DNA from: an uncultured Chloroflexia bacterium
Lineage (GTDB): Bacteria; Chloroflexota; Anaerolineae; Promineifilales; Promineifilaceae
DNA: 64,000 bases
Assembly (NCBI GenBank): GCA_963747345.1
Contig: CAVVFA010000030.1
Location: 265,910-329,909 of the forward strand
Direction of reading: 5' to 3'
Part shown: piece by piece, positions 3,666 through 62,177 of the stretch
Layout: each line of letters opens with the position of its first letter
Position numbering within the stretch: position 1 is the first letter of the stretch
The notes under the pieces: model-generated
Databases searched by the model: none
What the model was told of the DNA's origin: nothing
What the model saw: only the letters and a program-made list of their open reading frames with translations
Program-made: the position numbers and the translations under genes

Positions 3666-5105
3666 TTAGGATGCCGCTTCAGCCGCTTTTTCCACAGCCT
3701 CGATAATCTTGTAATAACCGGTGCAACGACATAAATTGCCAGCAAAGGCTTGTTGAATTTGAGCCAATTCTGGGGAAGGATTTTCTTCAAGCAGCATGGC
3801 GCCTGACATTAAAAAGCCAGGAATACAGTAGCCGCATTGCACAGCGCCCGTGTCGATAAAGGCTTGTTGCAGTGGATGAAGTGTGCCATTAGTCGCCAAG
3901 CCTTCGATGGTGGTGATGGTGGCGTTATGGGCACGGGGCGCTGGAACCAGGCAAGACATGACGGCCATGCCATCTAAAATAATGGTGCAAGCGCCACATT
4001 CGCCTTCAGCACATCCTTCTTTGGTTCCGGTGAGATAGCCTTCATCGCGCAGCCAGTGGAGGAGTGTTTTGTGTATGCCGCCAACGGCCGTTATCTTTTT
4101 ACCATTCACCGTTGCTGTAATCACCCCATCTTTATCATGACTAGCTGTAAACTCAGAGCCAGTGGGGAATTCGCCATGAGTATCGCCCCAGAGCATGGTG
4201 GGGGCTTGCGGCCAAGTGGTCCGTTCTGCCCCGTCACGCAGGGCGGCGAGGGCGCGTTTTGTGAGTACGCCCACCATTTCCGTGCGATAGACGGCTGGCC
4301 CGCGCACATCGTCGATGGGGGTGGCGGTGGCTGCCGCCAAGCGGGCGGCTTCGGCGATGGTTTCATCGGTCAACTGTTTGCCGACGAGATACGATTCTGC
4401 TTTGGGGGTGGGAATGATGGTGGGCGCGACACAGCCCTGGGTGATGGCGGCTTGTTTCACCGTTTCGCCATCCGCCTCAAAATCGAGAATCAGCGCCAGG
4501 TGGATGACGGAGATGGCCTGGGCACGGCGCAAGCCGAGTTTCACAAACACACCGCGAGCGGTGGCCGGCATGGGGGCAAAGCTGATGTCTACCAGCATTT
4601 CATCTGGCTGCATGACGGTTTTGCGCACGCCTGTGTAAAACTCGGAAAGCGGCACTTTTCTCTCCCCGTTGACTGAGGCCAGGGTGACGGTTGCATTTAA
4701 CGCCCACAGCGGCGAGATGGTGTCGTTGGCGGGGCTGCCGGTGATGATGTTGCCCGCCACGGTGGCGCGGTTGCGCAGCTGCGGCGAGGCAACTTCTCAG
4801 CAAGCCTGAGCCAGCGGGAGTGCTTGTGCCACCAGCAGCGGCGACGCGATGACCTGATTATGGGTCACGAGCGGGCCGAGGTGGATGGTGCCATCGTCGT
4901 CTTGGCTAATTTTGTTGAGGCCAGGGAGACGGGTGATGTCGATGAGCATGTGGCAGTTGCGGCGTTGTCCCCGTTCCAGTTCCAGAAGCAGGTCTGTTCC
5001 ACCAGCTACAAGTCGAGCAAAACGGCCGTTTTTAGCCAGCAGTTTCAAGGTTTCATCAAGGGTGGTTGGTGTTTCGTAACGTGAAATGGTGTGTGGTTGG
5101 TTCAT
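3666..5105 (-). pseudogene. fused FAD-binding (CoxM/XdhB-like) plus [2Fe-2S] (CoxS/XdhA-like) Mo-hydroxylase subunit interrupted by in-frame TGA
   Basis: ORF 4797-5105 (GGTDL FAD_binding_5 N-domain) and ORF 3666-4760 are in the same frame, separated by TGA at 4797-4799; downstream codons give [17 protein letters not shown] (conserved FAD-domain motif), then the CO-dehydrogenase flavoprotein C-domain and CxxGxCGxC...CGYC...CRCTGY ferredoxin motifs. Confidence 0.65.
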
Positions 5106-16761: not shown

Positions 16762-16808
16762 GGAGATTAGAGACTGGCATAATCTCCAATCTCTAATCTC
16801 CAATCTCA
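16762..16808. repeat. heptamer-based hairpin element (AGATTAG/AGATTGG family), locus A
   Basis: ggagattagaga-loop-tctctaatctccaatctc; immediately after the His-kinase stop. Confidence 0.55.
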
Positions 16809-36378: not shown

Positions 36379-36525
36379 TATTCATTACGTCGTGTCAGCA
36401 CCACCAGCCCCGCGAATAACAGGCCAATGCCCAACCAGGCCAGCGGCTCCAGCGATTCACCCACTACGAAAATGCCTAAGAGGGCGGCGGTTAACGGTTC
36501 GGCTAGGGTGAGGGAAACGGCCGTT
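36379..36525 (-). repeat. eamA 3-prime-tail copy 2 ending in AACGGCCGTT (36516-36525)
   Basis: Same 46-aa peptide (one change, S to N) with many synonymous differences; upstream in-frame TGA shows it is an orphan tail. Confidence 0.65.
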
Positions 36526-36591
36526 GCCACTCATACCATCCCCGTCAAAGGCAAAGGCTCTCTGGAAATCATCCAAATTCAATCACCGTAA
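36526..36591 (+). repeat. duplicate of the REC-adenylate-cyclase 3-prime tail (TAVATHTIPVKGKGSLEIIQIQSP*), fused to eamA-tail copy 2 at the palindrome
   Basis: Compare 34346-34402 (TAVAIHTIPVKGKGSLEIIQI*); differences mostly synonymous. Confidence 0.6.
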
Positions 36592-36846
36592 ATATTTTAA
36601 TAGGGTGAAAAAAGATGAAATCATCGTTATCAAACCGCCAAAGAAAAATAATAATGCAAACAGGTATGATAGCAATTTTGAAACATCAGACTCAGCCCAA
36701 CCTTTCGGAGCTAATGGTCTCTGACGATTTTCTCTTTCCCAAAATTCATCCCATTTTTTCGTATCTTTCAGCATCTTATAGACTAAGAAACAGCCAATGC
36801 TGAATGCAATTATTGAGATAATTAGCGGAAAAATTACGTCAATCAT
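36583..36846 (-). CDS. AT-rich cargo gene: small 2-TM membrane protein
   Basis: ORF only; hydrophobic N- and C-terminal segments. Confidence 0.35.
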   Translation of the reverse strand: MIDVIFPLIISIIAFSIGCFLVYKMLKDTKKWDEFWERENRQRPLAPKGWAESDVSKLLSYLFALLFFFGGLITMISSFFTLLKYLR

Positions 36847-36880
36847 GATCTTCTACCTCTAAAATCAAACTGTGATTTCT

Positions 36881-37793
36881 TTATTCACTACGCCTAGTCA
36901 ATACCACCAGCCCCGCGAATAACAGGCCAATCCCCAACCAGGCCAGTGGCTCCAATGATTCGCCTACCACGAAAATGCCCAGGAGAGCGGCGGTTAACGG
37001 TTCGGCTAAGGTGAGGGAAACGGCCGTTGCTGAACTCACCGTCTTCAACCCAATTGTAAACAGCAAATAAGCACAAGCCAACGTGATCACGCCCAAATGG
37101 AGCGATACCACAAACCCGCTTGGCTCCGTTAGCCAGCTCATATCCAATACAAAGCAGAGCGGCAGCATCAACAGCGCCCCCAGGCCAAAAACGACTCCCG
37201 CAACAACGGTAGACGGCCGTTCTCCGACCAAGAATTTACTGGCAATGGTATACACCGCATACGCCGCGCCTGCGCCCACCGCCAACAGCATCCCGCCCAC
37301 ATCGACCTGAATGCTTTGGCCGCCGCCGATGAGCAGCGTGCAGCCCACAATCGCCAAACCTGTCGGCAATCGCCCACTGCCGCCCCGGCCACGTCCGAAA
37401 CACGATCCAGGTCAGCAATCCGGCCATAATCGGCGAACTACCGATGCCCACAATCGTGCCCATCGCCACGCCTGCTCGCGCCACACCCGCAAAAAACAAA
37501 AGTTGATAGCCCACCATCCCCAATACAGCCAAAACCAACGGCACAATCGGCCATCGACCGCCGTGCCGCCAGCCGCCACGCGCAAACATCAAGCCTGCCA
37601 ACAGCGCCCCGCCCAGCACCATCCGCACCGTTCCCACCGCCAGCGGCGATGTGCCGGCTGGCGCAAAGGTTTGGGCCGTGCCAGTGGTCCCCCACAGTGT
37701 TGCGGCTAATAAAACAAACCAGGCGCCTGAGATTGTGCGGGATTTTGCGGCCATTAAAAGACTGAGATTGAAGATTGGAGATTGGGAGACCAA
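36881..37793 (-). pseudogene. DMT-superfamily (EamA-like) transporter, apparent frameshift between the two EamA domains; its last 46 codons are tail copy 3 (36881-37028)
   Basis: ORF 37236-37793 (EamA domain 1) degenerates after IMAGLLTWIVF; ORF 36881-37369 in another frame carries EamA domain 2; switch at 37370-37400 (C4/G-rich). Confidence 0.6.
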
Positions 37794-37820
37794 TCTCTAA
37801 TCTCCAATCTCTAATCTCTC
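37763..37820. repeat. heptamer-based hairpin element, locus B
   Basis: gagattgaagattggagattgg-gaga-ccaatctctaatctccaatctctaatctc then T5; overlaps the hydrolase stop. Confidence 0.55.
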
Positions 37821-56559: not shown

Positions 56560-56617
56560 GAGATTGGAGATTAGAGATTGGAACGTGAAGCAATCTCCAA
56601 TCTCTAATCTCCAATCT
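56560..56617. repeat. heptamer-based hairpin element, locus C (21-bp perfect stem AGATTGGAGATTAGAGATTGG)
   Basis: A-run, stem, 10-nt loop, stem, then a T-rich stretch. Confidence 0.6.
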
Positions 56618-58048: not shown

Positions 58049-58666
58049 TTACTCGTCTTCCTCAAATACCTGCGTGGTAAAGATAAACAAGTCAGCGGTG
58101 CGCCAGGCATCAGGGCGTAAGCCGGCCTTGCGGCAAATGGCTTCCAGGTATTCATCCCGCGACCAGCCAAACATGCCCGGCACTTGCGGCAGCAGCAAGC
58201 CCCGCTTTTGGCCGCCGACGATAACGAGACCGTGTACGCCTAACTCAATCTCTTCGATGTGGGTAACGGCCGTTAACGCCGAGAGGATCGAGATTTCAAT
58301 GTGGAGGGTGGGCAGCTCAACGGCCGTTACCGGTGGAAACCTCGGATCACGCAGCGCCGCCTTCACCGCCATCACCGGCACTAACTCAATCAGCCGTTCA
58401 TCCGCAGTCATATGGCCGATGCAGCCGCGCAGCCGGGCGGCAGTATCGGGGGGCAGGCCAGGCTGCCAGCGGGTGCGCAGCGTAACAAATACCCCCGCTT
58501 TCTGCTGAAGAATGGGGTCATCTGTTTGTGACGGAGGAAACCGCTTGGCTTGCAGGTAATAGCCAATTGCTTCACGCGCTAAAACAAGCAGCTCACGCTG
58601 CTGCGCGTCGTTCAATGTCAAAATAGGGTGGGGAACTGCCTGGGATTCACTTTCTGTGCTTGTCAT
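58049..58666 (-). CDS. AMMECR1-domain protein
   Basis: About 200 aa with the conserved RGCIG motif. Confidence 0.6.
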   Translation of the reverse strand: MTSTESESQAVPHPILTLNDAQQRELLVLAREAIGYYLQAKRFPPSQTDDPILQQKAGVFVTLRTRWQPGLPPDTAARLRGCIGHMTADERLIELVPVMAVKAALRDPRFPPVTAVELPTLHIEISILSALTAVTHIEEIELGVHGLVIVGGQKRGLLLPQVPGMFGWSRDEYLEAICRKAGLRPDAWRTADLFIFTTQVFEEDE

Positions 58667-58930
58667 TGCTCACCTTCCTTCGCACAAAAATATTGTAGCA
58701 CAGAAAGCAATCAGCCTTCTTCTTGAATTTGCTCTTTCCGAGTCGTATACAAAGTCCGCCTTCGCGGACTAAAAACAGCCGGATTGAGAATTGCTGTTTT
58801 GCTCCCCCGCTTTTGACGCCAATTTTCCTCACTGTTATACTCCTCGCTTGCTGGAAAGTAGTCGAGGTGTCACAACATGTGGGAGTCAACGACCACAAAT
58901 CAACACCCAGCAATCAATTGAGGCAGAATA

Positions 58931-60373
58931 ATGGCAAAACAAGACAAACTCACCCCGCGCAGCGAGGATTTCAACGAATGGTACAACACCGTCGTGCAAA
59001 AAGCGGATATGGCCGACTATGGGCCAGTGCGTGGCACGATGATCGTCAAGCCCTATGGTTGGGCTTTGTGGGAAAATATACAAGGCGCGTTAGACAGCCG
59101 CTTTAAAGCCACAGGTGTGCAAAACGCCGGCTTCCCCATGTTTATCCCCATGAGCTTCTTGCAAAAAGAAGCGGCCCATGTGGAAGGCTTTGCCCCTGAA
59201 CTCGCCGTCGTCACCATTGGCGGTGGGCAGGAACTGGCAGAACCTCTCGTCGTCCGTCCCACCTCGGAGACGATGATTGGACACGCCTACTCCAACTGGA
59301 TTCAGAGCTACCGTGATTTGCCGATGCTGCTCAATTTGTGGAACAGTGTTGTCCGCTGGGAACTGCGCACCAAGCTCTTCCTGCGCACCCTGGAATTCTA
59401 CTGGCAAGAAGGCCACACCGCCCACGCCACCGCCGAAGAAGCGGATGAACGCACCCGCCTGATGCTGGATGTGTACACCGACTTTGCTGTCAACGAAGCG
59501 GCCGTGCCTGTGATTCCTGGTATTAAATCAGATATGGAACGGTTTGCTGGGGCCAACGAAACCATGACCATTGAAGCGATGATGGGCGATGGCAAAGCGC
59601 TGCAATCGGGTACTTCTCACAATTTGGGCGAAAATTTTGCCAAAGCGTTCGATATTCAATACCTCGATAAGAACAACGAATTGCAAAATGCGTGGACAAC
59701 TTCCTGGGGTTTGAGTACCCGCTTCATCGGCGCCATTATCATGACGCATGGTGACGACCACGGCTTGATTTTGCCGCCCCGTTTGGCTCCTTATCAGACA
59801 GTGATTGTGCCGATTTACAAGAATGATGAAGAAAAAGAAGCCGTTCTCGAAGCGACCAATCGCATTCAGCAAGAACTCATTGCCGCTCATGTTCGTGTTA
59901 AAGTCGATGACCGCGAAAACTTGACCCCTGGCTTCAAGTTCAACGACTGGGAAATGCGCGGCGTACCAACCCGCATTGAAATCGGCCCGCGTGATGTGGA
60001 GAAGAATTCGGTGGCCTTAGCCCGCCGCGATATTCCAGGACGGGATGGCAAGCAGTTTGTGTCGCAGGATGGCATTGCGCAAACGGTGGCTGATTTGCTG
60101 GTGACGGTGCAGCAAGCACTCCTGGATCGGGCGACCAAATTCCGTGACGACAATACGCATGACGTGGACAACTATGATGATTTCAAAACGGCCGTTTCCA
60201 CAGGATTTGCTCGCGTGTGGTGGGCAGGAGACAGCGCCGAAGAGACCCAGGTCAAAGAAGAAACCAAAGCCACCATCCGCTGCTTCCCCATCGACCAGCC
60301 CGGCGGCACAGGCACCTGTTTCTTCACCGGCAAACCAGCTGATAGAATCGCCATCTTTGGCCGCGCTTATTAA
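58931..60373 (+). CDS. proS: prolyl-tRNA synthetase, archaeal/eukaryal-type (no INS editing domain, about 480 aa)
   Basis: Class II motifs; length and N-terminus typical of the arch/euk-like ProRS found in some bacteria. Confidence 0.8.
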   Translation: MAKQDKLTPRSEDFNEWYNTVVQKADMADYGPVRGTMIVKPYGWALWENIQGALDSRFKATGVQNAGFPMFIPMSFLQKEAAHVEGFAPELAVVTIGGGQELAEPLVVRPTSETMIGHAYSNWIQSYRDLPMLLNLWNSVVRWELRTKLFLRTLEFYWQEGHTAHATAEEADERTRLMLDVYTDFAVNEAAVPVIPGIKSDMERFAGANETMTIEAMMGDGKALQSGTSHNLGENFAKAFDIQYLDKNNELQNAWTTSWGLSTRFIGAIIMTHGDDHGLILPPRLAPYQTVIVPIYKNDEEKEAVLEATNRIQQELIAAHVRVKVDDRENLTPGFKFNDWEMRGVPTRIEIGPRDVEKNSVALARRDIPGRDGKQFVSQDGIAQTVADLLVTVQQALLDRATKFRDDNTHDVDNYDDFKTAVSTGFARVWWAGDSAEETQVKEETKATIRCFPIDQPGGTGTCFFTGKPADRIAIFGRAY

Positions 60374-60379
60374 AACAAA

Positions 60380-60435
60380 AGATTAGAGATTGGAGATTTG
60401 GGATCGATAATCTCCAATCTCTAATCTCTAATCTC
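60380..60435. repeat. heptamer-based hairpin element, locus D
   Basis: agattagagattggagat-loop-atctccaatctctaatct. Confidence 0.6.
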
Positions 60436-60445
60436 AGGTATTTAT

Positions 60446-62177
60446 ATGAAACTTTCACGAGCATTTGGCAAAACATTACGAGAAGCACCGGCCGACGCCG
60501 AACTAGCCAGCCATCAACTCCTCATTCGAGCAAATTACGTACGGCCGATTGGGGCGGGTATTTACGTATTTATGCCATTGGGCTACCGTGTCATCCGCAA
60601 AATTTGGGAGATTATGGCGCAGGAGATGGATGCCATCGACGGGCAGGAAATGTGGATGCCCAACCTGAATCCGGCGGCGCTGTGGCAGGCAACCGGGCGC
60701 TGGGACACGGTAGATGTGCTCATGAAAGTGAAAGCGGGCGGCGGGCGTGAATATGCCCTGTCAGCTACTCACGAAGAAGTAGTGACGGAACTGTGCCTGC
60801 GCGACATCGAAAGTTACCGTGATTTGCCGCGCATGATCTACCACATCAGCAAGAAGTTCCGGGATGAACCGCGTGCGCGTGGCGGCTTGCTGCGCCTGCG
60901 TGAGTTCATCATGAAAGACGCCTACACCCTCGACCCCGACGAAGAATCCTTCGACGCCTATTATCCCCAGATGCTCCAGGCGTATTACAATATTTTTGAA
61001 CGGGTTGGCACACCCGCTGTCGCCGTGCAAGCCGATACCGGCAGTATGGGCGGCAAAACCTCGCACGAGTTTGTTGTGCCGCACGAAGAAGGCGAAGATA
61101 CCTACATCGCCTGTACCGAATGCGATTATGCGGCTAATGTGGAAGCGGCCGAATTCGTGCGTGAAGGTGACAAACCGGCTGAGTTGGCCGAGTTGGTCAA
61201 AGTCGCCACGCCGGATTGCAAGACAATTGCGGATGTGGCGGCGTTTGTGGGTGTCGAGACGAACCAGACGGTGAAGGCTGTCTTTTTCTGGCGGTGGCCG
61301 TTAGGAGAAAGTGAGGAGAAACGGCCGTTTCGTATTCATACTTGTGCGCGGCGATTTAGATATCAACGAAATCAAACTCATCAATGCGTTGGGCGGCGGG
61401 CAGCTTCGTGCCGCCACCGAGGAAGAAATTCGGGCGGCGGGAGCAGAACCGGGCTACGCCTCAGCCATTGGCTTGGACATCGCCCAAGATTTTGAGCAGC
61501 CAGGCGTGTTTGTCATGGCCGACACCTCCATTGAGGCAGGTGGCAACTTCGTCGTGGGCGCAAATGATGCTGGCTATCATTTCACCGGAGCCAACTACCC
61601 GCGCGACTTCGCCGTCAGCCAAATTGCTGACATTGCCCAGGCGGATACGGGACACAAATGTCCCCACTGCGGCGCGGCAATCGAAGCACGGCGCTGCACG
61701 GAAGCGGGACACTGTTTCAAACTAGGCACCCGTTACTCTGACCCGACTGGTGCTACTTTCCTCGATGAAAATGGCAAGCCACAACCCATCTTCATGGGCT
61801 CATACGGCATTGGGCTAGACCGGCTGATGGCGACGATTGTGGAACAACATCATGACGAACAGGGCATTGTCTGGCCGGATGCGGTCGCGCCGTATCAAGT
61901 TCATTTGCTCCATCTGGGCAAGGGCGACGACGTGAAAGAAGCGGCGGATAACCTGTATGCGGAACTACGCCAGGCTGGTTTGGAAGTGCTGTACGATGAC
62001 CGCGAAGCCAGCGCGGGTGTGAAGTTTAACGATGCGGATTTGATGGGGCTGCCTTGGCGCGTGACGGTTGGTGGACGTGGACTGGCGCAAGGTACGGTCG
62101 AAGTGAAGCGCCGTAATCAGGAAGATCGTGAATCCGTGCCGTTGGCCGAGTTAATTTCTTTTCTCAAATCAGCGTAG
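60446..62177 (+). pseudogene. proS: prolyl-tRNA synthetase, bacterial-type (with INS region), apparent frameshift inside an AACGGCCGTT palindrome
   Basis: ORF 60446-61495 (MKLSRAFGKTLREAPADAE...) becomes nonsense after KAVFFW; ORF 61311-62177 in another frame continues (...GRFVFILVRGDLDINEIK... anticodon-binding end); switch at 61317-61330. Confidence 0.7.

Follow-up and report, generated by a model that had tools for sequence, protein, structure and literature searches.

Adjacent genes for E-type and P-type prolyl-tRNA synthetases in an Anaerolineae lineage, with an apparent frameshift in the second gene

The closest precedent for two architectures of prolyl-tRNA synthetase (ProRS) in one bacterium is Bacillus thuringiensis, whose two enzymes, ProRS1 of the P-type and ProRS2 of the E-type, are both constitutively expressed and both specific for bacterial-type tRNAPro with G72/A73 (Ivanesthi et al., NAR 2024, PMC11229370). 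According to the same work, its E-type enzyme shows greater tolerance of heat, H2O2, and dithiothreitol and is more halofuginone-tolerant than typical E-type enzymes, both genes are kept by most Bacillus species, and the share of bacteria with an E-type ProRS is about 22%. To date, dual ProRS architectures have been characterised in Bacillus, whose two genes are unlinked. Here, we analysed a stretch of 64,000 nucleotides from an uncultured Chloroflexia bacterium (Anaerolineae, Promineifilaceae; contig CAVVFA010000030.1, positions 265,910 to 329,909), referred to as the window and numbered from its first letter, in which the same two architectures are encoded side by side by the genes named here proS-I (E-type) and proS-II (P-type). 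Unlike the B. thuringiensis genes, those of the Chloroflexota pair are adjacent, appear to share one conserved promoter, and are co-inherited throughout a clade; the E-type enzyme is here the more conserved one, occurs across Chloroflexota classes, and is not obviously the "extra" copy. Our overall reading is that the two genes probably constitute a long-established proS operon of an Anaerolineae lineage and that the frameshift interrupting proS-II as deposited is most likely an assembly error.

The leading gene, proS-I (58931-60373, forward strand), is intact and encodes a protein of 480 aa, which scores 540.8 bits on TIGR00408 (proS_fam_I), above the equivalog cut-off of 437. According to Pfam, the product consists of the domains tRNA-synt_2b, HGTP_anticodon, and ProRS-C_1, and its motifs 2 and 3 are not separated by an INS editing domain. 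The definition of the E-type used here, that is, lack of INS and a C-terminal extension with a conserved terminal Tyr, is that of PMC11229370; ProRS-I ends in ...FGRAY, and its last Y pairs in the alignment with the terminal Y of 1h4q. The best solved relative is this same bacterial E-type enzyme, the ProRS of Thermus thermophilus (1h4q/1hc7), matched over the full length with 609.7 bits and with the same domain order. Three of four Cys residues of the Thermus C-terminal domain are replaced by other residues in ProRS-I (HCGDKAC vs WAGDSAE; GFCVRCG vs GTCFFTG). We take these four Thermus residues to be the ligands of a Zn ion, and the Zn site may thus be missing from residues ~425-480 of ProRS-I (60200-60373). 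Database homologues of ProRS-I at 80-100% identity form more than 120 clusters; those with a taxon name are nearly all Chloroflexota (Anaerolineae, Ardenticatenaceae, and Promineifilaceae), with one labelled Actinomycetales.

The second gene, proS-II, starts after a spacer of 72 nt (60374-60445) and, as deposited, is read in two frames, namely, an open reading frame (ORF) of 349 aa (60446-61495) and another spanning 61311-62177. Residues 1-282 of the former match positions 1-281 of NF006625 with 361.6 bits, and the latter matches positions 284-558 with 301.8 bits; each fragment lies below the equivalog cut-off of 558, and no single uninterrupted frame is present. The same break stands in the contig as deposited, whose gene calls include the 349-aa fragment. 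The 5' part (60446-61320, forward strand, frame 2) encodes motifs 1 and 2 together with the beginning of INS, while the 3' part (61322-62177, forward strand, frame 0) encodes the rest of INS, motif 3, and the anticodon-binding domain; Pfam detects tRNA-synt_2b in both parts, while its matches to tRNA_edit, at 48.7 bits, and to HGTP_anticodon, at 80.1 bits, come from the 3' part. A catalytic core split by an INS of ~180 residues (tRNA_edit), followed by a C-terminal anticodon-binding domain, defines the P-type, and this is the organisation found in ProRS-II.

Orthologues of ProRS-II in the same 90% cluster exist in a long-loop form of 584-585 aa and a short-loop form of 575-578 aa, the latter reading ..LGxEEE-NGRF.. 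in a variable loop of 0-8 residues at the start of the INS core. It is in this loop that the break is located. By three-frame translation and alignment with the short-loop orthologues P0126-P0128, it was narrowed down to one extra A in GAGAAACGG at 61319-61321 (forward strand), where the window has AAA and the orthologues imply AA. The window reads GAG GAG AAA CGG CCG TTT; removal of one A yields GAG GAG AAC GGC CGT TTC, i.e., EENGRF, an exact match to the short form. The repaired protein has 576 aa and reaches 674.2 bits on NF006625, above its cut-off. The original prediction, made from the DNA alone, had placed here a 480-aa ProRS of archaeal/eukaryal type, a hairpin of heptamers, and a bacterial ProRS of about 580 aa with INS at 60446-62177 carrying an apparent frameshift. 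The first enzyme, with its coordinates, the hairpin (60380-60434, by a computed fold), and the frameshift all proved correct, as did the type of the second enzyme, whereas its length has to be amended to 576 aa after repair.

Repaired ProRS-II resembles the known P-type enzymes with INS (Staphylococcus aureus 5znj, Enterococcus faecalis 2j3l, and Pseudomonas aeruginosa 5ucm; TIGR00409/NF006625) in its tRNA_edit insertion and aligns with 5znj over the full length (471 bits). It differs from them in its variable INS loop, in being out of frame here, and in its distance from all sequences outside the Anaerolineae, to which its identity stays below 50%. Its homologues at 71-92% identity make up more than 120 clusters, and these bear the taxon names already seen in the ProRS-I list. 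A search of 1.84 billion cluster representatives returned nothing more than 54% identical to ProRS-II outside its own cluster, and the next cluster, at 48% identity, bears the names Anaerolineae, Anaerolineales, and Chloroflexota. Compared with three relatives, the ratio of nonsynonymous to synonymous substitution rates (dN/dS) is 0.04-0.09 for proS-I and for proS-II, including both halves of the latter; both genes are under strong purifying selection.

The order proS-I, proS-II, with an intact second gene, recurs in 12 further Anaerolineae loci of Ardenticatenaceae/Promineifilaceae-like character (in our numbering of homologous loci, L001, L003, L004, L005, L007, L009, L010, L086, L091/L092, L094, and L095), and at least 14 contigs, several of them only 3.6-12 kb long, are common to the homologue lists of the two enzymes. 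When nine genomes are compared pairwise, the identities of ProRS-I correlate with those of ProRS-II at r = 0.96. The neighbour-joining trees of the two proteins are congruent and have the same topology, and the co-divergence of the pair reaches down to 77%/68% identity, the E-type being more conserved than the P-type copy within the pair. The base composition of the two genes is alike, with a GC content, overall and at third codon positions, of 0.54/0.62 for proS-I and 0.56/0.60-0.63 for proS-II, with neither gene outside the spread shown by 24 others in the window. Furthermore, both genes contain copies of the lineage-specific 10-nt palindrome AACGGCCGTT, which abounds in 19 related loci, whereas 75 loci from other lineages have no copy of it. 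An E-type ProRS is present in other Chloroflexota classes too; at the more distant E-type loci (66-72% identity; other Chloroflexota classes, Acidobacteriota, and others), no P-type gene was detected within 7 kb. Judging from these comparisons of sequence, neither ProRS gene looks recently imported, and the pair has been co-inherited since the ancestor of the clade, since the two genes co-diverge, give congruent trees, are alike in composition, share the palindrome, and, in the case of ProRS-II, have an outgroup within the Anaerolineae. Both genes intact and stably paired across relatives is the observation that the original prediction had set beforehand as speaking for a stable functional partition and against a displacement of one gene by the other, and at the level of the clade it is largely what we see.

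A conserved promoter of the sigma-70 type lies ahead of proS-I at 58813-58841 on the forward strand; it reads TTGACG-17 nt-TATACT, carries a TG extension, and scores 10/12 with the TG. The pattern TTGACGC-N13-TGNTATACT occurs a single time in the window; 21 related loci likewise have exactly one copy each, 40-190 nt 5' of whichever ProRS gene leads, including ProRS-II at the loci where it stands alone; at none of these 21 loci is it found in the spacer between the two genes. The two genes are separated by only 11 nt in L086 and L007. We infer that proS-I and proS-II form an operon behind this one conserved promoter. Sequence conservation of the 5' leader of ~90 nt (58842-58930, forward strand) does not extend beyond the closest relatives, L001 and L002. 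Rfam yielded no leader RNA, T-box, or riboswitch at gathering thresholds, and at E<=1 the region 58600-60500 gave only chance-level microRNA and CRISPR matches.

The spacer between the two genes is largely occupied by the hairpin at 60380-60434 (forward strand), built of inverted repeats of the heptamers AGATTGG/AGATTAG, for which a folding energy of -32 kcal/mol (z = -7.05) was computed and which is not followed by a U-tract. The heptamer family has 19 matches in the window, against 0.35 expected, at five places: the proS spacer, three other intergenic clusters with several copies, and one single near-match. The arrays lie at 16781-16806, 37765-37817, 56561-56617, and 60380-60434 and are mostly inverted, forming long hairpins. 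Other genome-specific hairpin repeats are present in the proS spacers of relatives, with energies of -38.9 kcal/mol in L003, -58.7 in L095, and -13.2 in L009; L095 shares the heptamer family of the window, and the spacers of other relatives hold different heptamer families. As a dispersed repeat that forms a strong hairpin between cistrons and recurs in the spacers of relatives, the element is similar to intercistronic hairpins of the repetitive extragenic palindromic (REP) type, such as that of Escherichia coli malE-malF, although it is a heptamer array and does not follow the REP consensus. Hairpins of this REP type, as in malE-malF, make the preceding segment of an operon mRNA more stable. 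By analogy, the spacer hairpin might protect the proS-I segment of the mRNA, lower the relative dose of ProRS-II, and in this way set the relative expression of the two enzymes. In some relatives, the spacer harbors instead a small PDDEXK_3 gene (L001, 7551-7952; L091/L092, 6527-6940), which is flanked by inverted GGACACGGAT-type repeats and looks like a small mobile insertion.

Not all relatives keep both genes at the locus. ProRS-I stands alone in L006, L008, L011, and L087-L090, and ProRS-II stands alone in L083-L085 and L093; the clades with a lone ProRS-I and a lone ProRS-II have matching places in the ProRS-I and ProRS-II trees. In many relatives, a conserved gene of 64-66 aa (MAYS..NSK..TY.LH..DT.LKNGRTQTIYFFAKE...) lies divergently ~300 nt upstream of the leading ProRS gene, be it I or II. 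On the reverse strand of the respective loci, it was located at 4507-4701 in L083, 4433-4630 in L085, 3034-3234 in L086, 4511-4705 in L087, 4519-4713 in L089, and 3405-3602 in L093; no Pfam match is on record for it, and the window lacks it. The order rplS, 64-aa gene, promoter is common to tandem loci (L086, L007, and L095) and to loci with a lone ProRS-II (L083, L085, and L093), and the loci with a lone ProRS-I (L087-L090) show instead FAA_hydrolase, 64-aa gene, promoter. This pattern could reflect either a split of the operon in one lineage, with duplication of the module made of the 64-aa gene and the promoter, or reciprocal loss.

From these observations, a mode of operation of the locus may be proposed. 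A single sigma-70-type promoter would drive the expression of an E-type ProRS devoid of an editing domain, followed by a P-type ProRS that has one (INS). According to family membership and selection, both are predicted to be active prolyl-tRNA synthetases with partly different properties. The P-type enzyme would add the cis-editing of Ala-tRNAPro that the E-type lacks, and, by analogy with B. thuringiensis, the two could differ in stress tolerance or inhibitor sensitivity. Of the readings offered in the original prediction, specialisation of the two copies is the one that stays plausible. A stronger version, in which the pair is obligately co-transcribed and has been kept since the ancestor of an order-level Anaerolineae clade, implying non-redundant roles, is put forward only tentatively, and we consider it somewhat doubtful. 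If the roles were non-redundant, the contribution of the P-type enzyme might be the editing of Ala-tRNAPro, or the two enzymes might differ in tRNAPro isoacceptor, stress tolerance, or inhibitor tolerance, and the single-gene loci (L083, L085, and L093 versus L087-L090) might represent a reciprocal resolution of the pair. A conserved Chloroflexota operon encoding both types would offer a natural system for asking why two isozymes that are not homologous in architecture persist, whether for editing or for tolerance of stress or inhibitors.

The status of the frameshift in proS-II has to be judged together with other genes of the window, since six of them carry one +1 insertion each, as established from partial Pfam domains, single-base repair, and alignment with L001. 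On the reverse strand, these are the genes encoding the large subunit of a molybdenum cofactor (MoCo)-dependent dehydrogenase (~1423), XdhC (~5494), an EamA transporter (~37367), and an alpha/beta hydrolase (~38482); on the forward strand, they encode a MtaB-like methylthiotransferase of the radical-SAM type (~56788) and a GAF sensor just downstream of proS-II (~62506). Deleting one homopolymer base at the inferred site restored a full-length Pfam match in five of the five genes tested, extending, for instance, the match to XdhC_C from 1-44/125 to 1-125/125 and that to UPF0004 from 1-57 to 1-91/98, and the sixth shift was read directly from the alignment with L001. This approach was used in place of two codon-usage scans for frame switches, which were underpowered and returned only the MtaB-like case or a false one. 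Altogether, the ~55 genes of the window include seven shifts, all of them insertions and each the only lesion of its gene. A blastn comparison of all fetched loci with the window revealed no further syntenic stretch in which the other frameshifts could be checked.

The comparison with L001, whose ProRS-I is 96% identical to that of the window and whose proS-II is 85% identical in DNA, allowed a closer inspection of proS-II itself. The two proS-II sequences differ by one compensating indel pair, and otherwise the sole gap is one of 23 nt in the variable loop; the alignments with L001 and the orthologues leave the extra A as the only lesion. The dN/dS relative to L001 is 0.044 before the shift and 0.047 after it, at a dS of 0.6-0.9. 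Thus, neither dN/dS nor the alignments revealed in proS-II the several lesions and relaxed selection that characterise a decaying pseudogene, although a very young lesion would lie below the resolution of this test. Since the seven shifts have the same direction, each gene has one lesion, and selection is not relaxed, we consider a systematic error of assembly or polishing to be the most likely origin of the proS-II frameshift, and therefore the organism most likely has an intact ProRS-II of 576 aa. JGI metagenomes, scanned for exact matches to the frameshift junction with and without the extra A, contained none. At two of the seven sites, a copy of AACGGCCGTT is no more than 5 nt distant: the proS-II shift is at the 5' edge of the copy at 61320-61329, and the hydrolase shift is 4 nt from one. 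By our estimate, roughly 2% would be expected per site. Such proximity could stem from methylation-linked base-calling errors or from palindrome-templated mutation. In nanopore sequencing, errors are most frequent at homopolymers and methylated motifs.

Several observations weigh against an intact pair misread by the assembly and against the functional scheme attached to it. The seven shifts are clustered in three regions (0.9-6 kb, 37-38.5 kb, and 56.7-62.5 kb), which would fit a locally unpolished assembly but could also come from real decay; three lesions, for example, fall within one xanthine-dehydrogenase-like operon. Loss of ProRS-II from the locus does occur in the clade, namely, in L006, L008, L011, and L087-L090, with L011 being the sister of the window and L001 in the ProRS-I tree. 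No tRNAPro gene is present in the window, and co-transcription, enzymatic activity, and a division of labour are all things that we infer.

The losses just mentioned also lend themselves to a different explanation, according to which the frameshift is real, the P-type copy has very recently been inactivated, and the E-type enzyme alone charges tRNAPro, as the first step of the loss seen in these relatives. The frameshift does stand in the deposited contig, and the extra A converts GAACGGCCGTTTC to the perfect 14-nt palindrome GAAACGGCCGTTTC, as the templated mutation of a quasi-palindrome, a known mutational process, would do. On the other hand, proS-II has a single lesion and practically the same dN/dS on either side of it, and six unrelated genes with the same +1 type of lesion would require a pseudogene-rich genome, whereas the relatives keep these genes intact. 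We therefore regard a real inactivation as unlikely.

A further possibility, which takes up the resistance duplicate of the original prediction, is that one of the two enzymes is a resistance or self-protection copy directed against a ProRS-targeting natural product of the organism or of its neighbours. Second aminoacyl-tRNA synthetase (aaRS) copies can indeed confer resistance, and natural ProRS inhibitors exist (PMC11229370, PMC5388404). However, Pfam analysis of ~45 ORFs of the window revealed no nonribosomal peptide synthetase, polyketide synthase, or other natural-product biosynthetic cluster in the 64 kb, and a duplicate tied to a producer cluster is accordingly not what we find. The genes present are of housekeeping or regulatory nature (PGK, OTCase, Der, GDH, ABC transport, sensor kinases, TPR/NB-ARC proteins, and a xanthine-dehydrogenase-like operon). 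Resistance paralogues of the mupirocin IleRS2 or AgnB2 type are either linked to a cluster or sporadically distributed via horizontal transfer, whereas the ProRS pair is neither, and its composition is native. Vertical inheritance across the clade, a shared promoter of housekeeping type, a distribution that is not sporadic, and the lack of a signal of horizontal transfer make a resistance copy very improbable.

The other scenario of the original prediction, a recent horizontal acquisition of one gene displacing the ancestral one, with the frameshift as its sign, fares no better. It might be suggested by the deep divergence of the two architectures, which are only ~30-35% identical over the shared C-terminal part, and by the fact that the second gene is out of frame. 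Yet the 12 intact tandems, the correlated divergence, the congruent trees, the like composition, the palindrome in both genes, the nearest outgroups of ProRS-II in the Anaerolineae, and the occurrence of the E-type in other Chloroflexota classes all contradict it, and the frameshift, being one of seven +1 insertions with no relaxed selection and probably an assembly error, loses its value as a sign of displacement; we find such a displacement scarcely credible. Adjacent aaRS genes of divergent types need not mean recent transfer, and a "pseudogene" signal that suggests displacement may, as is most likely here, be one of many +1 indel errors of an assembly. Lastly, a functional split of ProRS-II into two assembling polypeptides, or a correction of the +1 at the A-run by ribosome or RNA polymerase, which a GTG at 61311 with AGGAG three bases upstream (in principle able to restart translation) and the position of the break in the variable INS loop might suggest, was rejected as extremely improbable, since the gene is unsplit in all relatives (the 120+ homologue clusters are single proteins of ~575-585 aa), the Shine-Dalgarno spacing is too short, AAA is no known slippery site, and six unrelated genes have the same type of lesion.

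Some minor features of the window complete the picture. The palindrome AACGGCCGTT is present in 61 copies in the 64 kb, against 0.04 expected, which corresponds to about one per kb in both genic and intergenic positions (e.g., at 1590, 5021, 38489, 58265, 60187, 61320, and 62472), and it was also seen in L001-L004, L006, L083-L085, and L091-L093. In this it resembles the highly iterated palindrome HIP1 of cyanobacteria; in the library of papers searched, AACGGCCGTT is not mentioned. An in-frame TGA interrupts the gene of a CoxM-like FAD subunit at 4797-4799 on the reverse strand. Finally, the C-terminal ~50 codons of the EamA transporter are duplicated ~500 nt downstream (36381-36530 versus 36884-~37030, reverse strand), and a hydrophobic ORF of 89 aa lies between the two copies (36586-36852), an arrangement that suggests an insertion with target duplication.

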